Assembly: GCA_036630325.1 (NCBI GenBank)
Contig: CP142732.1
Span: 744,001 to 808,000 of the forward strand
Origin: Vairimorpha necatrix
Lineage: Eukaryota
Length of the DNA: 64,000 bases
Direction: 5' to 3'
How positions within the stretch are numbered: the stretch's first letter is position 1; every line of letters begins with the position of its first letter. Position numbers and translations under genes: made by a program. Under the pieces are notes generated by a model that saw nothing but the letters and a program-made list of their open reading frames with translations, ran no database searches and was not told the DNA's origin. Shown here piece after piece: positions 1-41,294 of the stretch.

Positions 1-1
1 T

Positions 2-1666
2 GGTTGGTTTAGAGACTTTATTCCCAACTATGCGTATAGAACAGTAAGGCTTACTGAGGCTTTAAAGAAAGATGTTAAGTGGAATTGGACGGAGGATATG
101 GAAAGAGCTTTTGAGGATATGAAGCAAGGCTTGAGAGATATGAAAAAGTTGAAGATTCCGGACGGAAAAAAGCTATTTAGAGTAAGAACTGATGCGTGTG
201 ATACGGGGATCGGAGCAATTCTATTACAAGAAAATAAAGAGGGTGAGTGGATTCCGATACAATGGGCATCGAAAATGTTGACTCCTACCGAGCGAAGATA
301 TACGATAAGTGAGAAGGAGATGTTGGCGGTGTTTTTTGGAATAAAGAAGTTTGAAAGTGATTTGAGAGGAAGGAAATTTCATTTGATGACGGATCATAAA
401 GCATTAGCAGAGATCAGAAATAAGCCATACTTCAATAATAACAGAATAAACAGATGGGTAGAACAGATACAAGAGTTTGACTTTACAATAGAGTATGTGA
501 AAGGGGAGTTGATGACAGATGCAGATGCGTTAAGTAGGCAGTATGATCAGGTAGAAGTTTCGGATGAACAAAAAGAAAAGGACAACAAGAGAAAAGAAGT
601 GATCGAAAAACAAATTTTGGGAAAAAAGCAGAAACATATTAAAGAAAAGGACGGTAAACAGTATTGGGAATTTTCCACAGGTGAGGTGAAATAGATATTG
701 AGCCTAGATAGTAGAGAACATGAAATAACAAGAGTACATGAGGAGTTAAACCATAGAGGTGTCAAAGGCACTTATTATAACATTAAACAAAGATGGTATT
801 GGCCTGGTATGAAAGATCATATTAATAAGGTAATTAAGAATTGTGAAATATGTGGGATTAACAATAGGAAAAACACAGGAGGATGTGATTTCGTAGTAAC
901 TAGAAAGAAATTGGAGAAAGTGGCGTTGGATTTAATGGACATAGGTGGAGAGAATAGGTATGTGTTACTGGGTATTGATTACTTTACTAGAAGGTTGTGG
1001 GGTTCGAATTTGAGATGTAAAGAGAGTAGTGAAGTTATAGAGGTATTACAAAAGTGGATAAGGGAAGATGGATTTCCAGAGGAATATGTGACAGACAACG
1101 GAAAAGAGTTTGTAAGTAATAGATTTAAAGAATGGTGTAGTATTAATGATATTAAACATAGGAAAGTGGGCTTAGAAGCTCATAGGAGTAATGGTAGAAT
1201 CGAGAGATGCATCAGAACTATAAGAGAGACATTGATAAAGCAAAATGATGGGAATATTTCTGAAAAGATAGAAAGAGCAATCAAAGGATATAATAATACA
1301 CTACATACAGCAATAAAATGTACGCCGATGGAAGCGTGGAGAGATCAAACTGCTGAAGTTATAATTGAAAATGATGAAAATGGAAAATATGCTGGTCGGT
1401 TCAAGAGAAGACACAGAGAGACATTTACAGTAGGCCAAGAGGTAAGAATCGCTAGGAGAGAAAATTTAGGTACACGTGCGAAAACAGACAAGGGAAGATT
1501 CACGGGACGCGGAAGGATCGTAGCTATAAGTGAAAATGATTCATATATTGTGAGACTACTGGATGGTAAAATTGTTAAAAAGAGGCATTATGATTTGAAA
1601 GAGATAAGGAAGAGTTGTTTAGAAGATGGAGAGACTACCCGTCTGGAGGGGGGATGTAGGGTTTAG
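2..1666 (+). pseudogene. pol (RT end, RNase H, integrase) with an in-frame TAG at 692-694
   Basis: ORFs 98..694 and 698..1666 are in the same frame; the stop aligns to E of GRKVEIPP in element B. Confidence 0.85.
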
Positions 1667-1692
1667 AATCCTTAATAAATAAATGGTTAACA
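1655..1692 (+). repeat. putative 38-bp 3' LTR of element A
   Basis: TGTAGGGTTTAGAATCCTTAATAAATAAATGGTTAACA directly after the PPT; TG..CA ends; contains AATAAA and ATG; the partner LTR is outside the window, so the right boundary is inferred. Confidence 0.6.
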
Positions 1693-1766
1693 TAATATAC
1701 AAAAAACCTATATTCAGCTATAAGAGCTTTAAATTTCTGCTCCTGAATTTTTTTCATTTTTTATTA

Positions 1767-2125
1767 CCGGGGTTGGATTATAAGATCCATATATAAAAAA
1801 GATTATGGATCTTATTTATAAGTGGATCTTTTCTTTTGACATAAACTATTTGAAATTTCTTCTTAAATTTTTTGAATCTTTACCCCCATGAAAAAAAAAA
1901 ACCTTACACGCTTAAAGAAAAATTAGAAGGATTACAAAAATTGCGTGAAATCAATGGCAAAATAAGTATGCCTACTTTCAAGTTGCAGATTACTAGAAAA
2001 ATTGAGGGTTTCTTTTTTATAATAAACTTTTTACCATTTGGGTATGGGGTGGATCTCTTCTACTAGTATAAAAATTCCCATTTTTAAAGTCGTAATTTTT
2101 TTCTTTTGGTGGATCTTAAACCCGG
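1767..2125 (+). mobile_element. internally deleted pogo/Tc1-mariner-like element (MITE)
   Basis: TA-CCGG...CCGG-TA ends with imperfect TIRs (CCGGG..TAAGATCCA / TGGATCTTAAACCCGG); internal GGATCT/AGATCC repeats; CCCC-ATG followed by KKPYTLKEKLEGLQKLRE, resembling a pogo/CENP-B N-terminal HTH. Confidence 0.6.
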
Positions 2126-2703
2126 TACCTAACATAATAGTTTTAAATTTTTTTAATTTGTTTTGATGTTAGTACAACAAATATATATAGATCTTAAATG
2201 ACTTTAAAATCGTATCTGTAGCGAAAAATTTAAATATTGAAAAAATTAATTGTATGTTTATATTTCGATATTAGATATATAAAACAGTTACACTTAAATA
2301 TAAGGTATATAAATTCCAAAGATTATAAAGTAAACTAGATGTTATTTTTTTACTATTTAATACATGTTTGATATGTTTTTGGTCTACTTTTATCCTTGTA
2401 ATGTTGCGAATATACCATAAAATGTATATTGTGGATCTTAAAGTATATTGATATAATTTTTAAATAATGAAAAAATAAAAACAGAATTGAATAGTAAACA
2501 CCATTTTAACTATATTTAACAAAGACTTATGTAAGAAAATTTAATTTTTACCTTATAAATTTTATTTAAAAATTTTCTAGTTTTTTATAAAGAATTAATA
2601 AATATTATTTTTTCTTTTATAATATATTGCAACAATAAATGTATGAAAAAAGTAAGTAGTGCAAATATCAAATCTTGGTATAGCCATTCTGATGTATATA
2701 TGA

Positions 2704-2751
2704 TGTTATATATTTTGATAATTTTTACCCCCATTATGATAAATAAATACA
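2704..2751 (+). repeat. 5' LTR of element B (48 bp)
   Basis: TGTTATATATTTTGATAATTTTTACCCCCATTATGATAAATAAATACA, identical to 5832-5879. Confidence 0.97.
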
Positions 2752-5700
2752 TGGGGGCGATACCAAATCGAGAGTCAACAAGTGATGGCTGTGGTCAAGA
2801 GGCCAGAATAATGTTACAAGAAATTAAAAGAATAGTTTATAAGCTAGAGTTGGATGGAGTAGATGAGTCTCTATGGAAGGCAAGAATTTATGAAATGGGT
2901 TCGGAAGAAGTAAAGAACTTTATGGTAGAAAGAATTAAAAAAGAAGATAGTTGGTCCTTAATTATTGAAGAAATGGAAAAGGAGGTTAGAAAAGACGAAT
3001 TAAAAAAGAAGGAAGAAGAAGACAAAAGTAAGATGATGGAAATAATTGCAGAGTCGGTTAGAGGAACAGTTCGAGAGGAGCTGGCAAATAGAGGAGCATT
3101 AGGAAAAATAAGGGAAGAAACTTCGGGAGTAAGAAGTAGAGATTGTTTTTACTGTGGTAGATTTAGGCACATGGCAAGAGATTGCTTCGTAAGGAAGAGG
3201 AAAGAAGAAGATAATAAAAATAAACATTTTAACAAGTATTTAATTGTTCATGAAGAGAGTGGATCTACAAGCACAGAACTTAGCGCACAAGAATATAGGA
3301 AATGCGGAGAAGCAAAACGTAAACAAAATTCAAAAAGGAGAGGAATGAGAGAGGATAGAATAGAAGAGGGCCTTGTCATTGAAGATATAAAAGCGAAGTT
3401 TAGAGAAATTTTTGACTTGCAGCAGGAAGAGATCGTACACTGTAAGATAGAGAAATGTAAAATTGAGACGCCACCAGGGAAAAAAGTAGTTAAAAGAGGA
3501 CAAACTATCCCACAGGCGTTGATGGAAAAAACTGAAAAATATATAAAAAGTTTGGAAGAAAGAAAGATTATAAGAAGATCAACATCCGAGTGGAGGAACC
3601 CAATTAGAGCTATAGTAAAACCTAACGGAGGAGTAAGGCTTGTAAGTAATCTAATGAGTTTAAATGACTTAGTTGAAAAAGATCCGTATGAGTTGTCAAA
3701 TATTAGGGACATCGTTAGAGCCACACAGGGGTCTAAATGGTTTACCGTTATAGATCTGAAGGAAGGCTTTTACCACGTAGAGATTGAAGAAGAGGATAAG
3801 CACAAAACGGCCTTTGAATTTAACAGAAAGGTATATGAATGGAACAGTATGGTAATGGGATATAAAAATTCCCCGCAGATTTTACAACGAATAATGAACC
3901 AAATATTTGAAGATTTACAAGGAGAAGGAGTGGAGGTATATATGGACGACATCGTTATACACGCTAGAACTAAAAGAAGGCATGACAAGCTAGTTATAGA
4001 AGCATTGGAAAGATTAAAAAGACATAAAATGAGATTGAATATTGAGAAGATACAGTTTAGCCAACAGTTAGTTAAGCTCTTAGGAGTCACATTGAATGGT
4101 ACAGATATTGAAGCGAATGAAATAAAGAAGAACGAGGCGTTGGAATTCCCGCAGCCGACAAGTGTAAGTGAAACACGAAGATTCCTAGGAATGACAGGAT
4201 GGTTTAGGAACTTTATAAAGAATTACGCGGGATTAACTATTCATCTGACAGATAGCTTGAGAGGTAAAGATAAGAAGTGGGAATGGACGGTTGAAATGAA
4301 TAGAGAGTTTTTAGAGCTGAAAGAAGTTTTGAGAGCGATGGGGAAACTTAGATTGCCTGATTATAGGAAGGAATTTATATTGAGAACGGACGCGAGCAAT
4401 GTAGGGATAGGAGCCGTGTTACTTCAGAAGAACGATAAAGATGAATGGGTAGCAATCCAATGGAGTTCAAAAAAGTTAACACCTACAGAGACCAGATATA
4501 CTATATCGGAGAAAGAAATGTACGCGGTATTTTGGGGGATAAAAAGATTTGAATACGAGTTGCGCGGTAGGAAGTTTAAAATCGAGACGGACCATAAAGC
4601 CTTGGTTGAGATTAGAAATAAACCGTGTTTTAATAACAATAGAATAAATAGATGGATTGAAAAGATCCAGGAATTTGACTTCACCATAGAATATAAGAAA
4701 CCAGAAGAAATGGTGGTGGCTGACGCGTTAAGCAGGATACATATGGAAGACGATGAAAAGAAAAAGAAAATCAGAGAAAGGACCGCCAAGCAGATAGAGG
4801 GTAAATGGAAAGCGCACGTCGATGACGCAGAAGGAAAAAAATATTGGAGATTTGATTCAGGACGGAAAGTCGAGATACCACCAGAAGAGTCGAGGGAAAG
4901 TTTGATGCAGGAATACCACGAAAAAGTTGGACATAGATGTATGACAAGTGTATATTACGCGATGCGGGAAAGATTTTATTGGCCCGGAATAAAGAAAGAC
5001 ATAAATGAGACAATACGAAAGTGTGTACAATGTCAAATATATAATAGAAAAAGACTCGGTGGATGTGAGTTTGTAGATACTACACGTTATTTAGAAAAGG
5101 TTGCTTTGGATCTCATTGATTTTAGAGACGCAGGTAAATACGTATTGGTTGCGATAGATTATTACACTCGAAGAGTATGGGGCACGGTAATGGAGAACAA
5201 GACTGGAAAGAATGTGACAGAATTTTTAAGTAAGTTGTGTGAACAAGGAAAAAAAGCCCGAAGAGATTATAACGGATAATGGGCGAGAATTTATCAATGA
5301 GGGGTTTAGAGAGTTGTGTAACAGACTAGAAATTAAACATAGGAAAGTAAGTGTCGAATCACACAGGAGTAATGGCAGAGTCGAGAGGGTTATAGGTACG
5401 CTGCGAGAGAGCATTCTGAAGACTAAAGAAGGTACATTTGCAGAGAAGGTCATGGGAAGCATTGAAAAATATAATATGAGTTACCACACGGCACTAAAAT
5501 GTACACCAATAGAAGCGACAGAGGATAAAACTGGACATGTAATGATTGAAAATAGCCCACAGGGGAAATATGGAAAACTGTTTAACAGGGGGAAACGGGA
5601 AAAATTTAAAGTAGGTGAGTACGTGAGAGTAGCTAAGAAGGAAAACTTGAAAGGTGCGGATAAATATTCGAAAGGTAGGTTTTTAGAGAGTGGGAAAATT

Positions 5701-5808
5701 ATAGAGAGATGTGGCAATGATTCTTATATAGTTAAGTTAGTAAATGGAAGATATGTAAAGAAAAGGCACTATGATCTAAAAAGTCTGCTTGGGTTAAGGA
5801 TAAAGTGA
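2736..5808 (+). CDS. Gag-Pol polyprotein (CCHC knuckle, RT, RNase H, integrase), +1 frameshift in the A7 run at 5249-5255
   Basis: CFYCGRFRHMARDC; YMDD; TDASNVGIGA; ADALSR; H..H..C..C; ITDNG/NGRVER. Start placed at the ATG after CCCCC inside the LTR. No D(T/S)G protease motif between the knuckle and RT. Confidence 0.9.
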
Positions 5809-5831
5809 GACTAACCGTCTTGGAGGGGGGA

Positions 5832-5879
5832 TGTTATATATTTTGATAATTTTTACCCCCATTATGATAAATAAATACA
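5832..5879 (+). repeat. 3' LTR of element B (48 bp)
   Basis: Identical to 2704-2751, preceded by the PPT and followed by TSD TATGA. Confidence 0.97.
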
Positions 5880-6589
5880 TATGATGCAAAATTTAGGAAT
5901 GTATTGCATTTATGATAACTTATAAAAAACAGCATTTATCTCAAATTATGATTACGTAAAGTGCGAAAGATGACGCATTTTTTTAATAAAGAAGTGTTCT
6001 GTAGAAACCCCTACTAATTTTATAAAAATTTATACTGTAGCAAACCTTTATTTTTTTCTTAGAAGCTTCGAAATAAACTATATTAGGATTTTATTTCTTC
6101 TTCTCTTATAATCATATAAAACTGTATTATACTTAGCAAATATTAATGTTCATATAATTTCTTAGTCTACAAAGATTTTCGTAAACAATAGAAGAAATTC
6201 TCAAATTAAATAAGCGATATTCAGAAACTATCAGTTCTTATAAAGTATGACTTTAACTTAAATTGGTAATTGTGCCACCTAATTTTTTTATATTTTTCAA
6301 AAATTTTTTAAAGGCTTTATATGTGTAGTAATTACACAATAATAATAATTTTTCATATTTACAAATATTTGACATTTAGAAAAAATATCTTATAACCCTT
6401 TTAAACGTTATTTATAGAGCTAGCTAGACAATAAATAAATTATATTAACTTCGATATTTTTCTCATATAAAAAAGTTTTTTGATTGTTTTTTTCTACACT
6501 GATCAATATGAGATCACCTCTAAATACTTTTAAAAAACACGAAGCTGTGTTTATTTGATACAACAAATCAAATCATTATTATAATTAGT

Positions 6590-7120
6590 TTATTTTAACT
6601 GTAATATCCCTTTTAAAATTATTATTGTTTCTCCTAATATTTTTCTAATCTTCTTTATTTCTATTTTATATCCTTTGTTTTCTAACTCTTTTATAATTTC
6701 ATTTGGTTTATTGGCTTCTATAACTAGTAAGTAAAATGTTTTACATTCTACTTGTTTTATAAATCTATCAATTACATTTCTTCCGTTAACCCCTCCTCCT
6801 ATTATAGGACAGGAAGAGTCTAAGACATAAGGAGGATTAAAAATTATTATTTCAACTAGATCTTGTCTTATAGAATCTAGTAGATCCATATGTATAAGAT
6901 TTCCAATTTTCTGCCTGTGTAAAGCTTTAATATTGAGATCTGTACTAATTATAATATTAGACTTATCTAGCGATTTAGTAATAAATCCAGTACTGGTCCC
7001 CAGATCAACGATCAATGAATTTTTAATATTTTCTTGTTTTAGGACATCTACCAGGGTGTAACTATCTTCATCGGGAGAATACCATTCCAAAGGATACTCC
7101 ATATTAATTGAAGAATCCAT
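6590..7120 (-). CDS. MTQ2: HemK-family eRF1 glutamine methyltransferase (Mtq2/N6AMT1)
   Basis: WYSPDEDSYTL, SAM-binding VDLGTSTG, IFNPPYV, GGVNGRNVIDRF; CCCC just upstream of the ATG. Confidence 0.88.
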   Translation of the reverse strand: MDSSINMEYPLEWYSPDEDSYTLVDVLKQENIKNSLIVDLGTSTGFITKSLDKSNIIISTDLNIKALHRQKIGNLIHMDLLDSIRQDLVEIIIFNPPYVLDSSCPIIGGGVNGRNVIDRFIKQVECKTFYLLVIEANKPNEIIKELENKGYKIEIKKIRKILGETIIILKGILQLK

Positions 7121-7410
7121 AAAGGGGAAAAAATAAAAAATATAACAAGAATTTCAAGCATGTGTTATAAAAGATCTTATTGTCGTACATTAAAACTATA
7201 AAGCAAATACGTCTTTCAGAAATATATTTATTATCAAAATAAAATGCAAAAATATTTTACCATTTGTTTTACACCATATTTCCCCAACACGCTTTCATAG
7301 GATTTTAAAATTATATGTTTTGTTTATTGTAAAACATTAAAAATAAGAAAAAAATATTAGCAAATAACATTTAGGTCTATTTATTATCGTTAGTCAATAG
7401 ACTTAATAAA

Positions 7411-9133
7411 TGTCAAAGTTCGGAGCGAACGCCCGTTCGGAGCGGACGCCAGGGGTAAAAAATTAAAAAAAAACTCTTCAGTGAGGATCGAACCAAAAAA
7501 TAAGAACAAACAAATGTTCGTCTTAAATGATAACCAAAGTTTTGTCTTGATTTTTTGAGGGGTAAATTTTTGCTATTTTTTTATAATAATGGGAGGGAAT
7601 ATTGAAAAAAAGGAGAAAAATAAAATAAACAAAATTTTTAGTACTTTATTCAATACCAAGCAACCTTAGATCTCTAGTACTTATTTCTTCTATTATAATA
7701 TCATTATCATCTTCTTTGCATAATTTTACTTTATTAAATTGTATTATGTCTGTTACAATATAGACCTCAGCATCTAAATGTTCATAAAGAGAATGTCTTC
7801 TGGTATTGACGTTGTTGTCCAAGTAAGGTCTTATAAGGACTCTATCTCCTATTTTAAATTCTAAAAAATTATTTTTCCACATACTTCTTTGTACCATTCT
7901 ATCTGCAGCAGTTTGTGTATGAATTCTTGTTGCATCATGATAAATTTCATTTAAAAAAGGGTTTGTGTTATTAAGAGCATATAGTTGTCGGAATCTCATT
8001 AGTATTGCAATCTAGAACATCTACTAAACTTTCTCCAGTGCGTTCTTCGTCCTCACGCTCTTGTTCGTGATTTTCGCTATTAATCGATTCTAGACTCGTC
8101 CATTATGTCCCTAATGGGTCTACCAAACATTAAAGAGAATGGTGTTTGTCTCGTAGTAGAGTGTCTTAAATTATTATATGACCAGGTAACTTCTTCACGT
8201 ACTTTGGTCCATTGACCCAAAATATTTTTTGTCCTGAGAGTAGATGCAATCATCCACTTTATTGTTTGATTGCATCGTTCTATCTGTCCTTGTATCCATG
8301 GACATCTAGCTCTCCCCCTTACATGTCTTATTTCATATTTCTGACATAAATCGACGAGTGTTTGATTTACAAATTCTCTGCCGTTATCAGTATGAAGTAT
8401 ATAACAAGAACCAAACGTCCTAAACAATGTTTCAAAAGCATTCCCTAGACTAATACTTGATTTGTCATATAGTGGTACCGTCCAACAAAATTTGGTAAAA
8501 GAATCTACAATATTCAAAAACCATTTATATCCATCATTGAGTTCGTGATATAGCCGGAGATCAATCAAGTCTGCAACATATCTTTCCCTTGGATACTTTG
8601 CTACAATTGGTCTGATAACTGGTCTAGTTGCTAGATTTCTCTTTGATTGACATATATCACAGCTATTCAAGACCCTCTGTATATCTTTTTGTGTTGCGTC
8701 GTAGACTTTTGTTGTAATAATGGAAACAATCTGTCCCGTCCCGCATGCCCATTTGAGACATGAATCAATTTTATATAATCGATTTTGAATCGTTGCTCGT
8801 TGGTGGTAAAGAATCTTAATGATCTATATAGACCTACTTTAAATCTCACCGTGAGCTCTGTGATACCGTCAATTATATCCTCAAAAAGGAAAAAATTTTT
8901 GTGCCTTTTTCCTGAAAGCATCTCGTTCTTGTTTTTCTATCAACCTTGTTGGAACAATACCAGTCTGTAAAAAGACAAAAACTTCTTGTCTTTCATTGTT
9001 ATTCAATTTTATTTTCATGCCCTTAAAATTAAAGAAATTTTAAATACAAATTACAAATAAACACCAATTTTTTTTTAATTTTTTACCCTTCTCAAGTAAG
9101 CATTTTCCCTGGCGTCCGCTCCGAACGGTGACA
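7411..9133 (-). mobile_element. Ginger2/TDD-like integrase DNA transposon, copy 1
   Basis: TGTCA...TGACA ends with TIR GTTCGGAGCGGACGCCAGGG / CCCTGGCGTCCGCTCCGAAC; rve integrase on the minus strand with no RT; closely similar copy at 60415-63442. Confidence 0.82.
7646..9018 (-). pseudogene. Ginger-like DDE integrase/transposase, frameshifted into at least three pieces
   Basis: HVSNGHAGRD..CDIC zinc motif, ADLIDLR, VDSFTKF, LHTDNGREF, QGQIERCNQTIK, HSTTRQTPF, C-terminal FKIGDRVLI; GGGC-ATG at 9018. Confidence 0.8.
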
Positions 9134-9812
9134 ATTACTGTTAGGCAATGTAATGGAAAACAAGACTGGCGTATTTACCGGGAAGCTTGCCTGTAGCAAG
9201 GAAGCATTCAATGATGCTACGGTTTGGGGTGCCGTGAAGACCGGAGTTAAAAGAGTTAAAGGGAAAGGATTGTTTATTGTTATGAAAAGAGTTTGGTTTA
9301 TCTGTTTTGTAGAAGGAAGAGTGTTTGTTATTGTTCTGATGTTGTACCATGTTGTTCATGGAATTTCTCTATTTATATTACATAGTAACCAATAGAAAAG
9401 AAATAAGATTTGGCTGACCAATAATAGTCGAACATAACTGATCGTTCCGAAGAAGCATCAGCGTTTAAGTATTTATTGGTTTTATAAATTATGTGGTATG
9501 ATCCATTATACCACAAAGACTGTAAAGTATTTTATGTCATATTAAAGAATTTTTAAAAAAAATTAAATCATAAGGTTCGACTGGCAGGAATAGATGCATT
9601 TAAAATTTGATTGTGGGAATATAATATACAGAAAAATGTATTCGAATAAATTTATGCTAAATCAATCTCATACACAAGCCATCGTGGAACCGTAAACACT
9701 TTGTTTTTATGGTCCTTTTGTTACAATATTTAGTTCTCTCTTTTATTAATTCCCGTTTTCTACTTCTAGCAACTTACCATGTTCCGTTTTAGAGTCATTT
9801 TGGTTCTAGGAA

Positions 9813-9941
9813 AATTCACCGACCATCAATTCACCGACAACAATTCACCGACAGCAATTCACCGAAAATCAATTCACCGACCAACAAATTCACCGACAAC
9901 AAATTCACCGACAACAAATTCACCGACAACAAATTCACCGA
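9813..9941 (+). repeat. subterminal tandem AATTCACCGA repeat, 9 copies (5 inverted copies at about 12020-12090)
   Basis: 14-16-bp units AATTCACCGA(CAAC/A) read directly. Confidence 0.92.
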
Positions 9942-10404
9942 AAAATCGAAATATGTATTTTTTATGGGTATATTTATGATATACATATTTAATTTAAATT
10001 TTTTTTTGTATGGATCATAAATATTGTGCAATATAGCATTTGAATATTACTATATTTATATCACTAAATAAATTAAAAAATAGAAAATGTATTAAAATGT
10101 TCATTAAAAATTAATCTGAAAAGAAAGATTATGAAACAACGCGAAAACAATTCCTCAAAATTATGACATATAATTTACTAGTATACTTGTAACATTAATG
10201 TTTTTACATTGCATTGGGGTGTAATGTTCTATCTAGACATATTTTAATAAAGTCTCATCCAATTCGATACCAAAGTGCAATGAAGGTATCCTAGGCACAA
10301 TTGGTAAGGCGCAGGTTTGCGAAGAAAGATCTATACTTTACTTAAAATGGCACAACTCTTTTTAAATATTTTAACATTTTAATTCTGAACCCCTAATTTC
10401 AATA

Positions 10405-11800
10405 ATGCAGATCGAATATTTACTCTCAGAAAAGGGGAAGAAAAAATTAATTTTAGAAGGTCATCTTTTCTTTAAAGAAAAAGATGTTTGGGAACTATCC
10501 AAAATATATTGGAAATGTGAATACTATCAAAAGTACAAGTGCAAGTGTAGAGTGATTACAATGTCTAATGGGGAAATTAAAGTGTTTGGCGAACACAACA
10601 ATTCGGGAGATGCTGCTAAAGTCGAAGCCGATAAAATATATGCTAATGTTCGAGCCTTGGCAAAAAGCTCTAGAGAAGCGCCACAATCTATTATATCAGA
10701 TTGTTTATCTCTTTGCAGCCATGCTGCAGCTCCAAAATTGCCATCGATTGACAATATGAAGCGTAGCGTTCGGTATATTCGACAAATTGCAGAAACTAGC
10801 CCCGCACTCCTAAATTCGCGGCAAGAAATTACATTCACAGACGAATTCAAATAAACGACAAGAGGGGAACCCTTTTTGCTATATGATTCTGGACCAGATG
10901 AAAACAGAATTTTAATTTTTTCGACGACTCACAATTTACGGCTTTTGGCAGATCGTCAACACTGGTACGCAGATGGCACCTTTAAAACCGTACCATTATT
11001 ATTTCATCAACTGTACACAATTCACGGGCTAAAACAAAGTGCTTCTATTCCCTTGGTCTTCGCTTTATTGCCAAATAAATTAGAGCAAACGTATTCTAAA
11101 TTTCTTTGCACTTTAAAAGAGTTGGAACCATCATACAATCCGCAATCCATAACTGTAGATTTTGAAAAAGCCATGATGAATGCTATTTCAGTACAGTTTC
11201 CTGGTGCAAGTGTAAAAGGATGCTTTTTTCATTTCTCACAGTGCATTTTCGAGCCGTTCAAAATCATGGACTCAAACTACTGTACAATACAGATCCAGAA
11301 TTTGCACTGCAAATAAGATCGCTGGCCGCCATAGCATTTGTACCTTCCAATTTTGTTGTTGAAGTTTTTGAAGAATTGTCTGACAGAATACTGCCCATCG
11401 AAGCTCTGCCCGTCTTAGATTATTTTAAAGATACTTGGATTGGCCGCCCAAACCGAAGACAGCGTCGAGCCCCGAAATTTGCATCAGAGATATGGAATAT
11501 GTACTCCAGAACAATAGATGGTCTACCGAGGACTAACAACTCGGTCGAAGGTTGGCATCGTGGGTTCGAGTTGCAAGCTGGTGGCACTCACCTGAATATT
11601 TGGAAGTTTATCAATTGCTTAAAAAAGGAACAATCTCTAAATGAAGTTCGAATAGAACAATTTTTGTCTGGTTTTAATGCTCCTACATCTAAAAAAAATA
11701 TCGCGATTGTAGAACGAGACTTCTAAATATAGTGTCCAATTTTAATCGATAAAATATTAAAAAATATATTCGTGCCATTGCCCATAATCTGACATTTTAA
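10405..11800 (+). pseudogene. FLYWCH-MULE transposase with an in-frame stop (10852-10854) and frameshifts (about 11245 and 11695)
   Basis: IYWKC..CKCRV..GEHN FLYWCH; WYADGTFK, FHQLYTIH, ITVDFEKAM, GCFFHF, RTNNSVEGWH. Confidence 0.9.
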
Positions 11801-14800
11801 TAATAAATTATTAGATTTTTATGTTTTCTATTATTTTTAATTAGTTTTTTATGTTTATGATCATTTTGATACTTTTTCTATTTTTTAATTTATTTAGTGA
11901 TATAAATATAGTAATATTCAAATGCTATATTGCACAATATTTATGATCCATACAAAAAAAAATTTAAATTAAATATGTATATCATAAATATACCCATAAA
12001 AAATACATATTTCAATTTTTCGGTGAATTTGTTGTCGGTGAATTTGTTGTCGGTGAATTTGTTGGTCGGTGAATTGATTTTCGGTGAATTCTCCGGACAC
12101 CAGTCATTTTAGTGTTCTAAATGTTACCTTTTTCAGAAAGACTTCAAAATCAGCTCATCTTTATAATGTTGGCGACAATTAGTAACTACAATGCCCACTT
12201 ATCCACATACGTAAAAAAACCATACTTTAATTCATATACAGAAGCTGCTTATTCTCTACTAAATATTATACTATTGCTTTTTTTGTTTGCATTATTCTTA
12301 GCTATTAAAATCAATACTTTTAATATCTAAAATGCATTATTTATTTTGTTGACTAAGTGTACAGGGTCTTATTGTATTATACTTTGAGTGCACTCCAAAC
12401 CTCTTTTCTACTCTAAGCTGTACGTCTTTTTAACATACATGTTTTAACTTTAAGTTTTCCTTTCTTGTTTGCTTGCAATTGCATCGTTTTTGTATAAATA
12501 CATTATAAAAGTTCGTCATGCCACACATATAAACATGTTATTTGTTTCCATCGATCTGTATTGCCATGTTGTTGATTGTCATTGATCTTTTATACATTTG
12601 GAACATTTCCTATTTTTTTCTATAAAGATGTTACTATATCGCAGAGTACGCAGGCCGGTATTTTCTGTAGGTTGGATATTAACATTTATAAGTATATTAA
12701 CTAACCAATAACAAAAATTAAACATTTTAAAGTTATAATGAGTCTCATATACTTATGTTTGTTCAATTTATAATATATTGTAATATTTTTGGCGTTTACA
12801 AGATTTACTGTGATTCATTTTATTGCTTATATGTACAATTCAAGGGATTATTGATCTTAAAAAGGTGTGCATTACGATAAAAAACTGGCTATACTATACT
12901 CCTTCTCCTTAATTTGGATTTTTTTTGCTGTCTAAATATGTAAACAGTTGTAATAACCCATTTTACCTTCTAAACTTTTTATTGTTATCTTATTTTTGGT
13001 GTATACGTAATCTTTGCAGACACATTACTGGTGTGTGGTAGTTGTATGGATATTTAATCTTTTAGTTTTACCTTTTTTATTCCATGACATAATTCTTATG
13101 ATCCCTACTAATAGTTATGCCGTGATATGCTTTATACATGTACCCTCATTATATTGTCTATATAATTACGTATTGTATTGTACTGCCGCTTAATTGAGGT
13201 ATAATTTATAAACATTTAAAATTAAATCCAATTAAGTTTAGACTTAATACAATTTTTTTAATAGCAAGATTTATAAGGATTCCACAAAAGTGTTATTAAA
13301 TCATAACAACGATAATTATTTGTCTTTAAAACTTCACAGACGTAAAACAAATAAACCTTCTAATTGACATTTTAATAAGTTGTATGAATCAAATATTATT
13401 TAACAACGTTTTTACTAGAAAATAGTGCATTGCATGGGTTAACAGAAGGTACATAATGCAAGTTACAATTATCGCCTTATATTCCTTTATCATCAAAATA
13501 TCTTCAACATTTGAGTTTTTCTTTATCCCGAGATATGTTAATATTATCTTTTTATATATTGCAACTATAAAATGCAATAAATAAGTTTAATAAATTTAAT
13601 TTTGTGCCAAAAATTTAAGGTATTGAAATTATATTATATATTTTTAGTACTTTATAAGATGTGGAACAAGATACTGTAGTAATTAATTATATAAAATTAA
13701 ATCTAGAAAAATATTTCAATCAAAAAAATCTCGAGCACGAATGGTACACGTTAATGATGCATCTAGTACAAACCTTTATAAGTATTTTAATTTATATTGA
13801 AAATTTTGCAGTTGATAATACGAAAGGCATAAAAATCTTATATTGATCTATGTATTATAGTACGAGCTAAATATTATGTATGCTTTGAAGTCTTAAATGC
13901 ATTTATTTCATATAAACTGATAAATAAAAAAATAAAATGTTCAGTATTAAAAAGAGAGGTAGATATAATATTCAAAAAAAATCTTTTTTATGTAGAAATA
14001 ATCTCTAATACAGTTAATGTCGCTATATATCAGATCTAATAATTTTTATGTGATCAGACAAAGATGTTGTGTAATTTTAAAATATTTTGATTGTAATTCA
14101 GGATGTACGGTATTATTTAAAATTTCATTTTTTTAAACCGAACAGACACAAAGACACAAGACCCAAAAATTACTTTAAGGATTGATGTCATACACGTGGT
14201 TTAATAGAATTTATTTTGCATGAATAGATTAGCAAACTTCCATCACTATATATCTTTATATTTAATATTGCGTCATATTGGGCCGATATTCTCCAAAAAT
14301 TCATCAATAAAGACTTAGATTCCTGTTTTTAACTTTATCATAACAGAAATAAAGGATGTCATAGGACTGGTTTTCATGTTTACATTTACAACACAAAACC
14401 AATGTTGAATTTAAATTTTATACGAATGCCTTCTGTATGAAAAACTAATAAATTATAAAAATATGAAAATTTTGTTACATTAACATAAATATATATATTT
14501 GTCAGACTTCCAAATAATTTATTTATTATATTCTTTAAAAATAAATTATATACAAAAATTGTGATCATACTATTCAAATCTAAATTTATAAAAATATGAA
14601 ATTTTTTTACTGTATGTTTAATCCATTTAATTATTTTAAAAATTTTGCAAAAAATTATGGTTTCAATTAATGATTATAAATACTCTATACAACAGCAAAT
14701 AGACTATTTTAAATTTTTTTTTTACAGAAAAAATTTATTGTATATTTTTAATATCATTAGTAAAACGTAAATTTTCCCAAATTAACTTTTATAGCAACAA

Positions 14801-17747: not shown

Positions 17748-18251
17748 ATGAATTTTATATATCTACTGCTTCAAAATATATCAACAACAAAAAACGGAGA
17801 AAACAAAAACGGTATTAATAAACTTTTTCTAAATGGCACACTCGATTTAGTAACTTCTGAAAATTCGGAAAAGCATTTTAATGAGTTTTGTCGGGGAAAA
17901 AATTTGAAAAATGGATGGCTATTAAATGAATTTGATTATAGTGAAAAGACGAAAATTAGCTTACAGAAAAAAAAGAAATATGCCACGAATACTACTGCAA
18001 AAAATTCTCAGGATGTAACTATAAATGTACCATGTACTAATGAGAATAATACAGACGAGGATACTTTTTTAGAAACAGTTTCCAATTCAACAAAAATATC
18101 GACAAATAAAGAACACAACAAATGTATTTGTTTAGTTGGTTTTTGTTTAGAAAATAGTTTACTGGGTACTTTTTTGGGTATTATAATAGTTTTTCTGATT
18201 CTTGTTCTTCTTATTTATAATTTTCCTCAATTGTTTACTAAAGAGAAATAA
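17748..18251 (+). CDS. orphan signal-peptide plus C-terminal TM protein, family member 1
   Basis: CCCC-ATG; short hydrophobic N-terminus MNFIYLLLQNISTT; C-terminal TM LLGTFLGIIIVFLILVLLIY; similarity to members 2 and 3. Confidence 0.8.
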   Translation: MNFIYLLLQNISTTKNGENKNGINKLFLNGTLDLVTSENSEKHFNEFCRGKNLKNGWLLNEFDYSEKTKISLQKKKKYATNTTAKNSQDVTINVPCTNENNTDEDTFLETVSNSTKISTNKEHNKCICLVGFCLENSLLGTFLGIIIVFLILVLLIYNFPQLFTKEK

Positions 18252-20763: not shown

Positions 20764-20812
20764 TGTGATATATTTGTATTATTTCTATCCCCCATTATGA
20801 TAAATAAAGACA
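20764..20812 (+). repeat. isolated (solo-like) 49-bp LTR related to element B
   Basis: TGTGATATATTTGTATTATTTCTATCCCCCATTATGATAAATAAAGACA; shares CCCCCATTATGATAAATAAA exactly with LTR B; TG..CA ends; no clean TSD. Confidence 0.75.
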
Positions 20813-32130: not shown

Positions 32131-32238
32131 TTAGGATATAGTGTTGGGGTGGGCTACAGCAGACCCCCGCCCCTTAAGGATGTTCACTTTAATTTCGAAC
32201 CTCAAAATTGAAGTGCAAAAAAAGGAGGAGGAGCTTGC

Positions 32239-34330: not shown

Positions 34331-37143
34331 CTTGCACTAGCACTCAATTTACTTATTCCTTTTTATATTAAAATTACAAAATAAAATCTTTACATGGCCT
34401 AACAATAAATTTTAAACCAAGATTAAGAAATAAAAACGTTCTACTTATAATTTTAACCATATAAAAATTAGTAATTAAATACGGATTTTTATATATAACC
34501 CTTTAAAAACGACAGAATTCTACGAGAAAGTTAAGAAATAATAAAGAAAATGATTTTATATACTTTAAAATCAAAGTTTTGTCAAATATGCTACGGGAAC
34601 TTAAAACGACGTTTTTAAATACAAAATCAAATGAGATGTACAACAAAAAGTTTCAGAAAAATAGTAATGATAACAAAAAATAATTTAAATGGCTAAATTG
34701 CCTTAACTGATAATTTGCAGGTCATGTTTCTTTTTGTTAAAAATACAGCAATAAAAACAATTAAAAAATATATAGTCTCATAAAAAAACAATTTATAGAC
34801 TTATCAGAAAATTTGGCAATCACATAATTGGTAATAAAACTATTGGAGGACCAGGTAAAATTGTAGAAATCGACAAACTAAATTCGGAAAGAGAAAAAAC
34901 AACAAAGGCCACAAGAAGGTGGCGTATGGGTACTTAGGATGATGGAAAGGACGACGGAACGAGGCTTAGTCTTACTCAAAAATTAAAATAGAAAGGCCGT
35001 GACTCTCGAAAGATATATAAATATTATGTACATACCGGAAGTATCATACATACTGATTATTGGAGAGGGTGTATAAATTTAAATTAATATGTTATATAAA
35101 CATAATACTGTTAACCATTCCCTTGGTTTTATAAATCCAGGGAATGGTGTTCATACCAACACGATCGAAGGAACATGGGCTGGTGTAAAAAGAGTGATTC
35201 ATGCCAGATGTAAGACTGAAAAAGGTGTAAATCTATTTTAATTTGTTTACATTTAAAAGAAATAATTTTAAGAAAAACCTTCGAAAATATAAAAAAAGTA
35301 CATTTTCTTGTATATTTCTTGAGTTATTTTAAATTTATAGGAATTTCGTTTTATTTTGTATTTTTAATGTTAAAAGTTCTAAGATATTTTTGTTTGTTTC
35401 TTGCTCCTCCTTTTTTTGCACTTCAATTTTAGTGTTCGAAAAAATAATGTGAACATCCCCAAAGAGATAGGGTCTGTGGAATCCTCATCCTCGATGATAT
35501 TAACTCGTAAAATGACACTAAGAATTCAAAAAAAAACTAAAAGCGAGAAATACGAATTTTTTTTTGCGTCTCTGTAAAAAAAATTAACAACGATGTTTGT
35601 TGTTTTTTGATGATTATCAGATTTATCGTGTGTTTCTATCGTCATTATGATAATGTTAATGAGGAATCCAATAATCTTAATTAAAGAGGATTTATCATTT
35701 TTAATTTTTAATAGACATATATTATATAATTAATTTCTATTGTATAAAACTAAAGATATGTTGTTTAGTTCAAACATTTTTATAAACAATGAACAATTAT
35801 GTATGTGGACACATGGATGTGTTGAATGCTATTTATCGCTAGAACTATAATAATAATCAATGACAATGAAATGTTTACGTCTATATTAAATTAAGAACAC
35901 ATAAAATTACACTCGGGAATTGTTAAACGCTGAACATGGAAGTTGATGCAAAAAGACAATATTCCGAAACGCTGCTAAAATAAAAAAAAACATATAATCT
36001 TATGCTTACAATTTAAATATAAAAAAATTAGATATTACGTTCAATATATCACTTAAAGAAATTTATAAAATTTTATCGATATGTTCTAAAAGAAAATTAA
36101 ATTAAATGTTTTTAGCGACGAAATTAATTAGAACCGCGAGCAGAAATTGTTATTATATAATGCATTTGATAGCCTCTACGTAAAAATAACATAAACTGGA
36201 TATTCATTGTAAATTATATTTTTAATTATATTATTAAATCATAAACAAACAGTTAAAGATTATAAATTATGTTTATTGTTTGACAACATTATTAAAAGTT
36301 TTAAAAGGCTTATATATTCAAAATTTGCTCTTAAATACATTTATTTATTTTTTAAGGTTTCATTTAGAATTATATATACATATATATATAGTATAAATTT
36401 TTATCGCAAGTAACAAAGCTTAAATACAAATGAGAATTATAGAGAAAACATCAGAATGCACTTTCTTAGAACACCGGCAGGGACAGGCCGAGAGAAAATC
36501 TGAAACCAAGAACATAGTATAGGTGATTAAAAGGTAATGGGACCAAATAGAGTGCGCGTTAGTGGGGGGTTCTTATAAAAAAACCTAATTATGGTTTCTT
36601 AAATAAATAATTTTTTTGCAAATTCTTATAACATGAAAATTATTTATGACAAGAAAAAAATATAATCAATAAATTTATTATTGTAATTTTAGGTATTTAT
36701 ATCAATAAATGTATATTGTGACGTTATTAGTTTGGCATATTGATTCATAAATAATATTTTTAAGTCTAATACGAAACATTTAAAAGAAAATTTATAGAAT
36801 TCTTAATCCATTCTATCTTACTGAAGAAGATAGCAAAGTATAAACTTTTGATCGAAGACGAGTATACGACCAAAACAATACTGGAGTAAAAATGGATAGA
36901 GCTGTCAGTACATCGGCTTGTAAAGTAGGTGCTGAAAATGGCTTGTTAGTAAAAGAATCTAAAGATCAATTGAATAAAATGAATATATAAAATTAGGTTT
37001 CTGATTGTATAGAGCAAAATTGCTTGCAAACACCTAGAATTTATGTGCTAGCAAAAACTGATTTGAAAATTAACAAATATTTATATCTTCTGTAGTCTTT
37101 GTATTTTTTAATCATTTTCGCAATTTTTATGATAAATTAAGAT

Positions 37144-40100
37144 TGTTGATTATAAATAATAAAATAAATAAACCCCTATTCAATGATAAATCCTTATATA
37201 AACAACATGGTGAAGAATAATGATCAACCCAGTATAAACAGGAAAAATTTATCCCAAGAATTGATGAGATATGAAATACTTTTATGGTTTAAAAAAATGG
37301 AATCATTGGATAAAATTGAGTATGTTTTGAGTAAAGCCAGTTACGAAATAATTGAATGGCACTCAGCATTTATGGAACATACAAGAAGTTCCTCTATAAC
37401 ATATGACAAGTGGAAAGAAGCACTGTATAAAGAATTTAAAGAAGATGAAATTGAACTAGTGGATGTTTACCGCTTTTTTCAGAAAAAGGACCAGAATGCA
37501 AAAGATTTCATTGACGAAGTTAAAAAGAAATCAAAAGTAGTAAAAATGGACTCAAAAGAATCTATGAAAATTGTAATGCTCGGGATAAGAAGAGAATTTC
37601 CAAATTTAAGAGCATACATAACGAGCTGTTGTTCTTTAAATGATATCGACCTTAAGCGAGTTCTAATGATGGAAAAAATTGATAAAGAATTGAACGATAA
37701 GATAAGGACTATTTTGGGAAGAGAAGAAAAAGGAAATAAGAAATCTGGTCGTAATGGTTCTAAGGAAGTTAGAAATGATATAATTAAGCAGAAATACGAT
37801 AACAAAAAGCAGCTTCAAATAAATGAAGTCTTAGAAGACTCAGAAGAGATTATCAATAAAGAGAATTTAGTTTATATCGAAGACAAAAAATTTTTAGTAG
37901 TCTTTGATACAGGATCTAACTACAATTTTATTTCTGACACAGTTAGATTAAAAGCTGGTTTAAAAAGAAGAAAAAACCATGTCAAATTGAAATTCAGAAC
38001 CTGTCTTGAGGAAACCTTTGAAGTTAAGTATCATGTTTTATGTGACGTTACTTATAAAAATACGAAATATCAGTTAAAATTTTTTATTTTACCAAAAGTA
38101 TCCAAAGAAAAAATTTTGATTGGAAAAGATGGAATTAAAGTAATGATAAACTCTAAGGATCAGTATGAATGTGAAATAAATACAAAAAAAGACGCTATAG
38201 TTGTAGAGAAAGTATTTAGCTTCCCCAAGAAATTTGAATCTGGAATGGAAGATACGATAAAAAATTTGATAAAAATGAATTATATAGGCCCATCGAAGTC
38301 TACATGGCTAAATAACATTCGCCCAGTAGTAAAACCAGATAACAGTATAAGAATAACACTTAATTTAGTTGCACTAAACAAATTGGTAGAATTAGACAAA
38401 TATAGCCTACCTAATATAGAACACTTGGTATTTAATCTGAGAGAAAAAAAATTTTTTACAAAATTGGATTTGAAAGATGGTTTCTTTAACATTCCTCTAG
38501 CGAAAAAGGATCAACATAAAACTGCTTTTCGATTTAAGCATTTCTTGTATGAATGGAAAGTAATGCCAATGGGATTTAAGAATGCCCCGGCCATATTTCA
38601 GAGATATATGGATCATGTTCTAAAAGATGAAATAGGGAAGGCGTGTATCGTTTACGTAGATGACATCTTAATTTTCGGAGAAACAAGTGAGGAACACGAT
38701 AGAAACTTATGCAGAGTAATAAAAATATTAAAGGACAACAATCTCAATATTAACGAAAAGAAAACAGTTTCAAAAGTTAATAAAATAAAATTTTTAGGAT
38801 ACAATATCGAAAGAAATAAAATATCGGCCGAAAAATCGAGAATAGAAGTTATAAACGAATTTCAAAAACCAGAGAATAAGAAAAAACTTCAAGAATTTTT
38901 AGGAATGATAAATTACAATAGAAAATTCATTCGCAATTGCGCAACGTTATGTGAGCCACTATACAATCTATTAAAGCAAGGAGTAGAATTCATATGGACA
39001 GAAAAACACCAAAACAGCTTCGAAAAATTAAAGGAGGTATTAAGTAAACAAATAGAGCTACATCAGCCGAATTACAATCTTGAATTTATCCTGGAAACAG
39101 ATGCGTCAAACACAGGTCTAGGTGCTATATTGGCCCAGATCGACAAGGGAGTCAAGGTCCCAATCGCATTTGCTTCAAGAAGTCTAAATCCTCCCGAAAG
39201 AAATTATTCAATAAGTGAAAAAGAATGTCTAGCTATGCTATGGGGAATGGAACATTTTAAATACTATCTATATGGAAAGGAATTTACTGCTATTACAGAT
39301 CACAAGGCCCTGGAAGCACTTAACAAAGGAGAAATTAAATCTCTGAGAATCCACAGATGGCTAGATCGACTTAGCAACTTTATATTTAAAGTGATTTATA
39401 GAAAAGGTGAAGAAATGTCACACGTGGACGCTCTTAGTAGGAGCTTTGAAGGAAAAGAAAATATTGTTAACGAAGTGAAGGAAAGTGAACCTATATCAGA
39501 ACAAGAAAAAATTAAATTAATATTCGAAAAGCATAAAGAAATGCTACATAGAGGTGCAAAAACAATTATTTATAATTTAGAAAACGAATATAAATGGCCT
39601 AATATCAAATCGCTAACCAACAAGGCAATAGCTGACTGTACCATATGTAAGATGTATAATCCGAAGAAAAACAAAAAATTTATATTCGTAACAGCGTATT
39701 GTCCAGGCGAAAAGGTGGGAGTAGACATATTAGGTCCTATAGACAAAAATTATATAATAACAGGATTAGATTACTACACCAGAAAGGGATTTGCTAGGTG
39801 TATTAACGATAGGTCTGGACAAAAACAGCCCAATTTATAATGGAAATTAATAAAGAGTTACCAATAAAAACTCTTGTTTTTGATTGCTCAAAAGAAAATT
39901 TAAGCAACTGTGTTAAAAATGTTGCAAATACAAATGATATCAAGTTACACTACACGACACCATTCCATCATCAATCGAACGGAAGAGTGGAAAGGTTTAA
40001 TAGAACTCTACAAGAGATGGTACATAAAAACGAAAGTGACAAGTTTTTAAAAACAAAAGTAAAGAAAGCTATTCTAATTTATAATAATTCTTATCACGTA

Positions 40101-40485
40101 GGGTTGGGATGTACACCAAACGAAGCCTTAGATAAAGAATATGCAGAAACGGTTAAAAAAACACAATTTAACAATATATTAAATTATTCAAAAGCAACAG
40201 AGAAATTGCCGAAGGAAGAGGTCTTTACTGTTGGGAATACGGTTTTAATAAAGAACGAAAACGTGACAAAGGGAAAACCGAGATATTGGAAAAAGGGTTG
40301 CATCTTAAGTGAATTGGAAGGAAATTCATATTGCATAAAAATTGGCACCAAGTCTTACAAAAGACAGACTTCGCAACTAAAAAGACTTGTGGACGAGGAG
40401 CTAATTCTATAAGGGGAGGGATGTTGATTATAAATAATAAAATAAATAAACCCCTATTCAATGATAAATCCTTATATAAACAACA
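37144..40485 (+). mobile_element. complete Ty3/gypsy retrotransposon D, 3342 bp, 64-bp LTRs
   Basis: Identical 64-bp LTRs 37144-37207 and 40422-40485; 5-bp TSD AAGAT; PBS TGGTGAAG at 37208; PPT AAGGGGAGGGA 40411-40421. Confidence 0.97.
37183..40412 (+). CDS. Gag-PR-RT-RNase H-IN polyprotein, -1 frameshift at the A5 run about 39821-39825
   Basis: FDTGSNYNFIS protease; YVDD; ETDASNTGLGA; HVDALSR; H..H..C..C; SNGRVERFN; ATG inside the LTR after CCCC. Confidence 0.92.
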
Positions 40486-41294
40486 AAGATAATAACAAAA
40501 ACAGGCGAGAAAGATCGATAGAAGTGTTTTTCACTCGCATATAATTAGCGTTTGAAAACATAATAAAAAAATAATATCCATTTGATTAAATAAAAAGGAT
40601 ATATACATTTCTTTTTTATCAAGTGATGATAAAATTTTTGCTTGCGAATTTGCGAAAAAATAATATTATTATACCAGTTTATTATTGTGCAATTTTACAA
40701 CTCTATAAAACTTTTTTTAAAATTAGTTTTATACTGAATTGGTGTTTGCTCCGTGATTACATATAACGTGTATATCTAAAGTTTTAAATCAATACATGAG
40801 AAATTGAAGTTGCTTTTTGACAGCACTGGAAATTGATTACAGGGACATTTATTCGTTCTTATAATTTCAGCATTGCATACAAACACACTTCTATCCAGCG
40901 CTGAAATTTGGTCACGGTTATCTATAGTTCGAATTAGTCAATGTTTAAATATCGTGGATTTTAAATTATCTATAATAAATTCATTGGGTTTATAAAAAAT
41001 AACTCTTTAATTATGTAGTCACGAGAGAAAATACTTATAATATTTTCGACAAAATATTTTAATCTATATACGTAATATTATTATGATTAATTGAAAATAA
41101 ATATCAAAAATCATACGTCAGTTAAAAGGGTATAAGTGTGCATTATATATATTCTATCAATTTTGTAAATCTTTATATGTTTTTAATAAAATAAAATATC
41201 CAAAGAAAATATTATAATGGTAGGTTTTTCCCATTAAAATTCTCAAATGTAAACATATATAAAAAGTATTAATAAAAATTAAAAAATTACCCTT

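Follow-up and report, generated by a model that had tools for sequence, protein, structure and literature searches.

Very short long terminal repeats in Ty3/gypsy retrotransposons of the microsporidian Vairimorpha necatrix

Gypsy-type elements of the window

We analyzed a 64-kb window of the genome of Vairimorpha necatrix, i.e. the whole stretch of 64,000 nucleotides from positions 744,001 to 808,000 (forward strand) of contig CP142732.1 in assembly GCA_036630325.1 (G+C 28.5%); the coordinates given below count from its first letter. Searches with tblastn and the polyproteins of two elements, termed B and D, identified four gypsy-type elements in the window (A, B, C and D). B (3176 bp, 2704-5879) and D (3342 bp, 37144-40485) are long terminal repeat (LTR) retrotransposons of the Ty3/gypsy type, with LTRs of only 48 and 64 bp. 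The original prediction, which was made from the sequence without database searches, had ascribed to both elements identical LTR pairs of these lengths, TG..CA ends, target-site duplications (TSDs) of 5 bp and a polypurine tract (PPT), and all these features were confirmed in place. Element B, including its putative primer-binding site (PBS), is composed as follows (the basis of each assignment is given in parentheses; ORF, open reading frame):

2699..2703, no strand: left TSD, TATGA (sequence and empty-site contig)
2704..2751, plus strand: 5' LTR of 48 bp, TGT..ACA (sequence, repeat search, LTR alignment)
2722-2726, 2728-2732, 2736-2738 and 2742-2747, plus strand: modules of the 5' LTR, namely a T-run, C5, ATG and AATAAA
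2752..2769, plus strand: putative PBS (TGG...), within the reading frame (sequence)
2736..5279, plus strand: polyprotein part 1, which also includes the junction ATG at 2751 (ORF list, Pfam, model)
5249..5255, plus strand: A7 run, the frame break in integrase (sequence, run contigs)
5239..5808, plus strand: polyprotein part 2, the remaining integrase, with the stop codon at 5806-5808 (ORF list, Pfam)
5822..5831, plus strand: PPT, GGAGGGGGGA, adjoining the 3' LTR (sequence)
5832..5879, plus strand: 3' LTR, same as the 5' LTR (sequence, repeat search)
5880..5884, no strand: right TSD, TATGA (sequence and empty-site contig)

The corresponding features of element D are:

37139..37143, no strand: left TSD, AAGAT (sequence)
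37144..37207, plus strand: 5' LTR of 64 bp, TGTTG..CAACA, with AATAAA repeats, C4 and an ATG at 37183 (sequence)
37208..37225, plus strand: putative PBS, TGGTGAAG..., within the reading frame (sequence)
37183..39840, plus strand: polyprotein part 1, with a Gag-like region, DTG protease, reverse transcriptase (RT), RNase H and the integrase zinc domain (Pfam)
39821-39825, plus strand: A5 run where two frames abut (sequence)
39840..40412, plus strand: polyprotein part 2, the integrase core, with the stop codon at 40410-40412 (ORF list, Pfam)
40413..40421, plus strand: PPT, GGGGAGGGA (sequence)
40422..40485, plus strand: 3' LTR, same as the 5' LTR (sequence, repeat search)
40486..40490, no strand: right TSD, AAGAT (sequence)

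A search for exact direct repeats of at least 20 bp, spaced 2-9 kb apart, returned just five in the entire 64 kb. Two of them are long (51 and 64 bp) and are the pairs that bracket both gag-pol frames; the other three measure 20-21 bp. In B the exact 51-bp copies (2702-2752 and 5830-5880) yield LTRs of 48 bp after trimming to TG..CA. The sequence found directly 3' of the 5' LTR, the putative PBS, is TGGGGGCGATACC in B and, in its fuller form, TGGTGAAGAATAATG in D; TGG also stands directly behind the 5' LTR in L004, L018 and L028, three related contigs from outside the window that are described below. For A, B and D, our Pfam analysis revealed RVT_1, RT_RNaseH, Integrase_H2C2 and rve, arranged in gypsy order. 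The near-complete Gag-Pol attributed to B and D by the original prediction was thereby borne out, with RT, RNase H and integrase in both elements and one frame break in each. Part 1 of the B polyprotein runs from a helical Gag-like domain and a CCHC knuckle through RT, RNase H and the integrase zinc domain into the integrase core, of which it holds the start. With their TG..CA direct repeats, 5-bp TSDs, PPT and RT-RNase H-integrase order, B and D share these features with the Metaviridae. The polyproteins of B and D are 35% identical at the amino acid level. The closest match of the B polyprotein is a protein from V. necatrix (92% identity), and further named matches come from Nosema granulosis, Vairimorpha apis, Enteropsectra, Nematocida and Pancytospora. 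We also considered B and D as non-autonomous elements of the terminal-repeat retrotransposon in miniature (TRIM) or large retrotransposon derivative (LARD) kind and rejected this assignment, because RT, RNase H and integrase are present. No Rfam families were found in the window.

D possesses a DTG protease, which matches Asp_protease_2 with E = 7e-5, just below Pfam's own cut-off. In B and five homologues, no protease family was detected by Pfam at E values up to 1. The linker between the CCHC knuckle and the conserved start of RT in the B lineage consists of 101-180 poorly conserved residues, and D[ST]G occurs in it in two of the 29 sequences in which both landmarks are present (among 36 rows printed, with B counted twice). 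An AlphaFold model of residues 1-285 of B, computed from 27 aligned sequences with a mean predicted local distance difference test (pLDDT) score of 72, comprises a confident all-helical domain of about 110 residues (19-129, pLDDT >90), the knuckle, a disordered segment (165-213), and not one strand over its entire length. A Foldseek search of the PDB with the Gag model yielded no match at E <=0.001, with the C-terminal domains of the Ty1 capsid and of Arc appearing only at E 3-5. The B lineage appears to have no recognisable protease of its own, and its polyprotein may be processed by the protease of D in trans, by a host protease, or not at all. In contrast, nearly all elements of Nosema bombycis (Nbr) are reported to contain five domains including a protease (PMC2474625; statements on published work here and below refer to parts of the papers cited).

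The original prediction had also pointed to candidate LTRs of 38, 43 and 49 bp at 1655, 29502 and 20764. All three are present; they belong to A, to C and to a solo LTR, respectively:

1..1692, plus strand: A, the 3' part of a B-like element, with its 5' side cut off by the start of the window (ORFs, Pfam, tblastn)
2-694 and 698-1666, plus strand: reading frames of A (RNase H, integrase)
1645-1654, plus strand: PPT of A, GGAGGGGGGA, followed by its 38-bp TG..CA 3' LTR at 1655-1692 (sequence)
20764..20812, plus strand: solo LTR of 49 bp, related to the LTR of B (similarity stops at the LTR termini)
29502-29544, plus strand: 43-bp 5' LTR of C, a decayed element with pol remnants at 30352-31943 (tblastn)

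C extends to about 32150. The final piece of integrase that can still be recognised lies near 32100, an unrelated repeat begins at 32165, and a search for a 3' LTR of this element gave none. The flanks of the solo LTR contain no clean TSD.

Mobility of B and recurrence of short LTRs

Contigs (assembled sequences, not reads) of four public runs were compared with positions 1-20000 of the window. A 533-bp contig of run X1 follows the left flank of B up to 2697 and then passes straight to 5879, with a single copy of the TSD; eight letters at the junction, ATATGATG, fit both sides, as they include the TSD and neighboring positions that are alike by chance. This contig omits 3181 bases, equal to the element plus one TSD, whereas a solo LTR would omit 3128. 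The number of bases omitted and the single TSD thus identify an empty site rather than a solo LTR. It follows that B is a discrete insertion whose presence differs from one sample or haplotype to another, with the caveat that X1 may be the very sample behind the assembly of the window. Another X1 contig, of 3101 bp, extends from 2735 (within the 5' LTR) to 5836 (within the 3' LTR) and is 99.6% identical to B, with 12 differences. In both this contig and a contig of run X2 the A7 run at 5249-5255 is shorter by one A, hence a near-identical copy or allele of B with an open integrase frame exists. B is a recently inserted mobile unit. The recent activity claimed for both elements by the original prediction is supported for B by its empty site and its open-frame twin; for D, only the identical LTRs and the intact TSD speak for it. 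An X1 contig that covers A ends at 1683, within the 38-bp LTR of this element. As a separate observation, the summed contig depth of run X2 over 2669-3335, a purine-rich, low-complexity stretch of gag, exceeds that of the flanks by orders of magnitude, which may stem from the low complexity, from RNA or from small RNA.

B and D have one frame break each, in both cases at an A-run in a homologous place of the integrase region, where A is in frame. These breaks could be assembly errors in homopolymers, real mutations or sites of slippage.

Short LTRs recur outside the window. A protein-alignment search of two metagenome-assembled genome (MAG) records, G001 and G002, gave 69 matches (16 and 53, respectively). 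Both records are filed as bacterial, yet many of their contigs carry eukaryotic gypsy polyproteins, and this is likely mis-binned eukaryotic DNA. Among the contigs of sufficient length for an entire element, two contain complete ones: L018, of 3364 bp with identical LTRs of 58 bp, and L028, of 3590 bp with identical LTRs of 75 bp. L003, a contig filed as bacterial MAG, encodes a polyprotein with 51% identity and has a PPT (GGAGGAGGGGA) and a 38-bp LTR (positions 2724-2761 of the contig), both homologous to those of A and followed by 260 bp of unrelated flank. In L004, a candidate 5' LTR of 47 bp is followed by TGGCAACACCGATC. A contig of run X4 shows a B-like PPT and the start of an LTR, and its loose ends would give a unit of about 49 bp, which we regard as a hint only. 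The total comes to eight short LTRs of 38-75 bp (five in window elements and three in outside contigs), which represent no fewer than four lineages and three sources. Their recurrence agrees with the class put forward in the original prediction and speaks against an accident. LTRs of greater length were found in other related contigs, namely L026 (about 176 bp), L024 (at least 139 bp) and L043 (at least 268 bp). A search of metagenome contigs for related loci gave just two, L001 and L002; both of them are rearranged, with a piece of RNase H fused ahead of gag, and no LTR is visible in them. A search of viral contigs revealed no related loci. The lengths of homologue contigs (about 3.0-3.5 kb) agree with compact elements but were not taken as evidence for LTR size, since k-mer assemblies break within LTRs of any length.

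A quick phylogenetic tree was calculated by maximum likelihood from 29 polyproteins (961 columns, LG+G4, with support from the Shimodaira-Hasegawa-like approximate likelihood ratio test, SH-aLRT, and a midpoint root for drawing only). It leaves out A (partial), C (decayed), most of the database matches and the reference sequences of Parisot et al. In this tree B and D group with the named microsporidian proteins: the lineage of B, with 10 rows, and that of D, with 7 rows, are sister clades in one clade with an SH-aLRT of 100, which includes every named microsporidian row. All four rows of the B+D clade for which the LTR length is known have short ones (38, 48, 58 and 64 bp). The designation of B and D as distant lineages in the original prediction therefore requires some qualification; it agrees with the identity between their polyproteins, yet the two are sister clades, and their LTRs have CCC and AATAAA modules in common. 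L026 (about 176 bp) is the partner of L028 (75 bp) in a pair outside the B+D clade, and another group in the tree is made up of the two elements whose LTRs are longer. From its distribution among these sequences, the short LTR seems to be a trait common to one clade, not two independent inventions.

Signals in the short LTRs and their proposed working

The seven LTRs that could be aligned all share an AATAAA-like core and TGT..ACA ends. LTRs of the B type are arranged in the order T-run, CCC(CC), ATG, AATAAA, CA, whereas those of the D type have AATAAA first, then CCC(C), a stretch of about 25-30 nt and CA, and D itself has an ATG as well. CCC at most 15 nt ahead of the ATG is found in 10 of the 18 non-element ORFs of at least 150 aa, as compared to 128 of all 2242 ATGs (binomial p = 1e-8). 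A start motif composed of a T-run and then a C triplet at -10 to -3 has been described in Nosema ceranae and Encephalitozoon cuniculi (PMC2685015). Among the genes of the window we observed CCC, often behind a T-run, 1-13 nt ahead of start codons, e.g. at 6590-7120 (minus strand), 48946-49596 (minus strand) and 56088-56993 (plus strand), and AATAAA that often overlaps or closely trails the stop codons of long non-element ORFs.

ATG codons in a host-type context lie within the LTRs of B (2736), D (37183) and the solo LTR (20797). A second ATG is created where the last base of the LTR meets the TGG of the PBS (2751 in B, 37207 in D), and the codons at 2736 and 37183 are in frame with these junction ATGs, with no stop in between. 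The pattern recurs in homologues whose genes were called independently: among 34 full-length homologues of the B lineage, 15 start with M-x(2-7)-M-[AG] and six with M-[AG]; proteins of the D lineage have a '..NMVE..' or MVE start. At the other end of the frame, the stop codon is located 13-23 nt ahead of the 3' LTR in B and directly ahead of the PPT in D, and it falls within the 3' LTR in A (1664-1666), L003 and L018. Essentially every base between the LTRs is coding.

We consider it probable that B and D belong to a microsporidian Ty3/gypsy clade that replicates in the ordinary manner, with LTRs of 38-75 bp that carry a host-type start module. The minus strand would be primed in the tRNA-type mode at the TGG site and the plus strand at the purine tract, and integration would proceed with duplication of 5 bp. 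The 5' LTR would combine a host-type minimal promoter with the first codons of the polyprotein, and such a short LTR may be enough because the host itself seems to need just a tiny start module. RNA would start just behind the CCC, about 15-35 nt ahead of the LTR end, so that the repeat (R) and unique 5' (U5) regions together, and equally the minus-strand strong-stop DNA, would measure about 15-35 nt. Judging from the reading frames, the polyprotein probably starts within the 5' LTR, at the internal ATG or at the junction ATG, and in either case the PBS would be translated. The poly(A) signal would be AATAAA, which in the D type is situated upstream of the CCC, i.e. in the predicted unique 3' (U3) region; in the B type it stands 5 nt ahead of the LTR end, and thus the RNA probably ends in flanking DNA, which should be no hindrance to first-strand transfer. 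Precedent for host-type signals in such elements comes from an element of Anncaliia algerae (A. algerae), whose putative promoter contains a microsporidian regulatory signal (Parisot et al. 2014, PMC4202319). The strong-stop DNA would thus be unusually short, as the original prediction proposed, and an adaptive link to genome reduction, also proposed there, may exist.

The alternative that survives best, albeit as an unlikely one, is that these elements have no promoter of their own. Their RNAs would then start in flanking DNA as read-through transcripts, the entire repeat of 38-64 bp would act as R, and minus-strand transfer would precede arrival at the 5' end of the RNA. Such elements would explain why the LTRs are very short for a promoter, and with AATAAA so close to the LTR end in the B type, the 3' end of the RNA would be in the flank anyway. 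Read-through and overlapping transcripts are said to be common in microsporidia. Patterns of both initiation and termination vary in these organisms (PMC2685015). Nevertheless, each LTR lineage retains the T-run/CCC/ATG module, which is tied strongly to gene starts in the window, and random insertion sites would rarely supply a fitting upstream promoter. Moreover, by the established retroviral mechanism, strong-stop DNA ending in flank sequence would not be extendable after transfer.

We regard it as far less probable that the repeats of 48 and 64 bp are deletion remnants of longer LTRs, whether in the copies at hand or in a family that is dying out. The longer LTRs of L026, L024 and L043 and the A. 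algerae consensus of about 169 bp (counted by eye) could be quoted in its favor, and the original prediction itself had named longer LTRs in other family copies as a finding that would count against it; such LTRs were indeed found in relatives, yet in elements outside the B+D clade. Furthermore, the LTR pairs of B and D are identical, with TG..CA ends and intact TSDs, the short length recurs across all the lineages and sources listed above, and B is polymorphic, with an open-frame twin. No more probable is self-priming as in Tf1, with the 5' bases of the RNA folded back on the 'PBS' in place of a tRNA: CCCCCA of B (2728-2733) complements TGGGGG (2752-2757), and a fold of LTR and PBS pairs both, but this match of just 6 nt is reached by 72 of 2000 shuffles, D has at most 5 nt (reached by 1585 of 2000 shuffles), neither C nor L004 has a complement as long as 5 nt, and all PBSs begin with TGG, like those of tRNA-primed elements. 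Membership in the Tf1/sushi group, characterized by a complement of about 10 nt or more, was rejected, with 6 nt at most found here.

Several points weigh against ordinary replication from short, host-type LTRs. No tRNA gene for pairing with the PBS was found in the 64-kb window, and tRNA pattern searches in G001 and G002 returned just the PBSs themselves and chance matches. The U3/R/U5 borders are deduced from contig sequence. The conserved N-terminal Met pattern could reflect a constraint on the LTR ends instead of translation. The window copies of B and D, each with a frame break, may be dead, the left flank on the empty-site contig covers only 36 letters, and the identity of LTRs as short as 48 and 64 bp gives a coarse date at best. 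Outside the window, the TSD shows no match in L018 and a 5-of-6 match in L028; these two elements are no proof of integration, as flanks in a metagenome assembly may stem from different copies. Finally, the pairing of L028 with L026 implies that short LTRs are neither confined to the B+D clade nor universal among its relatives.

Comparison with known systems and other repeats of the window

LTRs are held to need hundreds of bases to accommodate the promoter, R and U5. Short or partly coding LTRs are familiar from a few systems. In Ty1, the Gag start codon is located in the 5' LTR and the PBS in coding sequence, and B and D would resemble it in their LTR-borne start and coding PBS; Ty1, however, is of the copia type and its LTRs are several hundred bp long. 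Mag of Bombyx mori has a gypsy LTR below 100 bp (77 bp, for which a literature search gave no confirmation), to our knowledge the shortest one of a gypsy element. Some retroviruses have an R of about 15-20 nt and AAUAAA in U3, which resembles the arrangement proposed for the D type. The LTRs of Mag and of short-R retroviruses are still longer than those of B and D, and the elements measure at least 5 kb.

Among microsporidia, Nbr and the 'retro' consensuses of A. algerae likewise encode a single gag-pol polyprotein with the gypsy domain order (PMC4202319), and a microsporidia-specific diversification of Ty3/gypsy elements has been described (Parisot et al. 2014, PMC4202319). The A. algerae retro elements also have a PPT of the AGGAGGGGGA type, as in the window elements (PMC4202319 supplement). 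The LTRs of retroA from this species, in contrast, are about 169 bp long (counted by eye) and their ends are not TG..CA (PMC4202319), while the window LTRs have 38-64 bp. We found no earlier description of LTRs below 100 bp in microsporidia, although Xu et al. 2006 on Nbr and the tables of Parisot et al. may hold sizes.

The layout LTR-PBS-gag-pol-PPT-LTR, a PBS of putative tRNA type, a purine tract of about 10 residues and the RT-RNase H-integrase order are common to our elements and the ICTV profile of the Metaviridae (PMC7879559). According to the same profile, U3 comprises 200-1200 nt, U5 75-250 nt and the internal region 3 kb or more, with non-coding LTRs (PMC7879559). The canonical size and content of the LTR are not found here: an entire window LTR has 38-64 bp and contains an in-frame ATG with the first codons, and in A, L003 and L018 the LTR includes the stop codon too. 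Plant LTR retrotransposons share the 5-bp TSDs, TG..CA ends and, presumably, the tRNA-type PBS (Neumann et al. 2019, PMC6317226), but they are 4.4-24.1 kb long and their LTRs were sought at 100-6000 bp (PMC6317226), as compared to 3176 bp for B and 3342 bp for D. The usual LTR size and the minimum of about 100 bp in LTR finders, on which the original prediction had relied, agree with these two sources (PMC7879559, PMC6317226). The genome of V. necatrix is described as tetraploid, with 28.3% GC, 50% repeats and 109 'retrotransposable elements', and the parts of that description considered here do not use the term LTR (PMC10759460). The finder minimum may explain why just 'retrotransposable elements' are listed there.

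Taken as a whole, the evidence supports the view that B and D are canonical gypsy elements in an extremely miniaturised form, common to a microsporidian clade. A bolder claim would be that, of all those seen so far, this clade's functional LTRs are the shortest (38-64 bp) and its genomes the smallest of autonomous LTR retrotransposons (3.2-3.4 kb), with the start and in some members the stop codon in the LTR, a translated PBS, an R of at most about 20 nt and one protease-free sublineage; we find the case for this claim and the case against it evenly balanced. If true, it would set a new lower bound for the promoter, the strand-transfer homology and the protein set of retrotransposition, and it would mean that annotation systematically turns such elements into pol genes without LTRs. 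Elements with LTRs of 38-64 bp offer a natural minimal system in which to study the shortest R and strong-stop DNA, the promoter needs of microsporidia and a protease-free gypsy element. Finders with a 100-bp minimum would miss elements of the B and D type, which would skew repeat annotation and the dating of insertions in microsporidia. With its promoter motif and ATG, a unit of 48 bp could also make new gene starts at its landing sites.

The window contains several other repeats. A different LTR element occupies 32239-34330, with LTRs of 349 bp (32239-32587 and 33982-34330) that are 99% alike, a 5-bp TSD (CTTGC) and no TGG behind the LTR. Its one ORF of 500 aa (32467-33969) starts within the 5' LTR and matches no Pfam family, and the element looks like a gag-only, non-autonomous one. 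LTRs of this length in the window indicate that the genome harbors longer LTRs as well. A family of repeats about 170 bp long, with a C-rich start, is represented at 27264-27432, at 27490-27659 and at 32165-32238 plus 34346-34433, the last copy being split by the element with 349-bp LTRs. The regions 7467-9114 and 60452-63426, which lie 54 kb apart, share a dispersed duplication of about 1.6 kb with 86-95% identity, and within it the segment 8134-8391 (minus strand) weakly resembles the integrase core (31% over 86 aa). At 9808-9941 and 60558-60685 there are tandem arrays, whose units measure 15 nt (CAACAAATTCACCGA) and about 22 nt. Among the host genes, 46746-48890 (minus strand) encodes glutaminyl-tRNA synthetase, with its nearest named protein in Nosema granulosis (65%).

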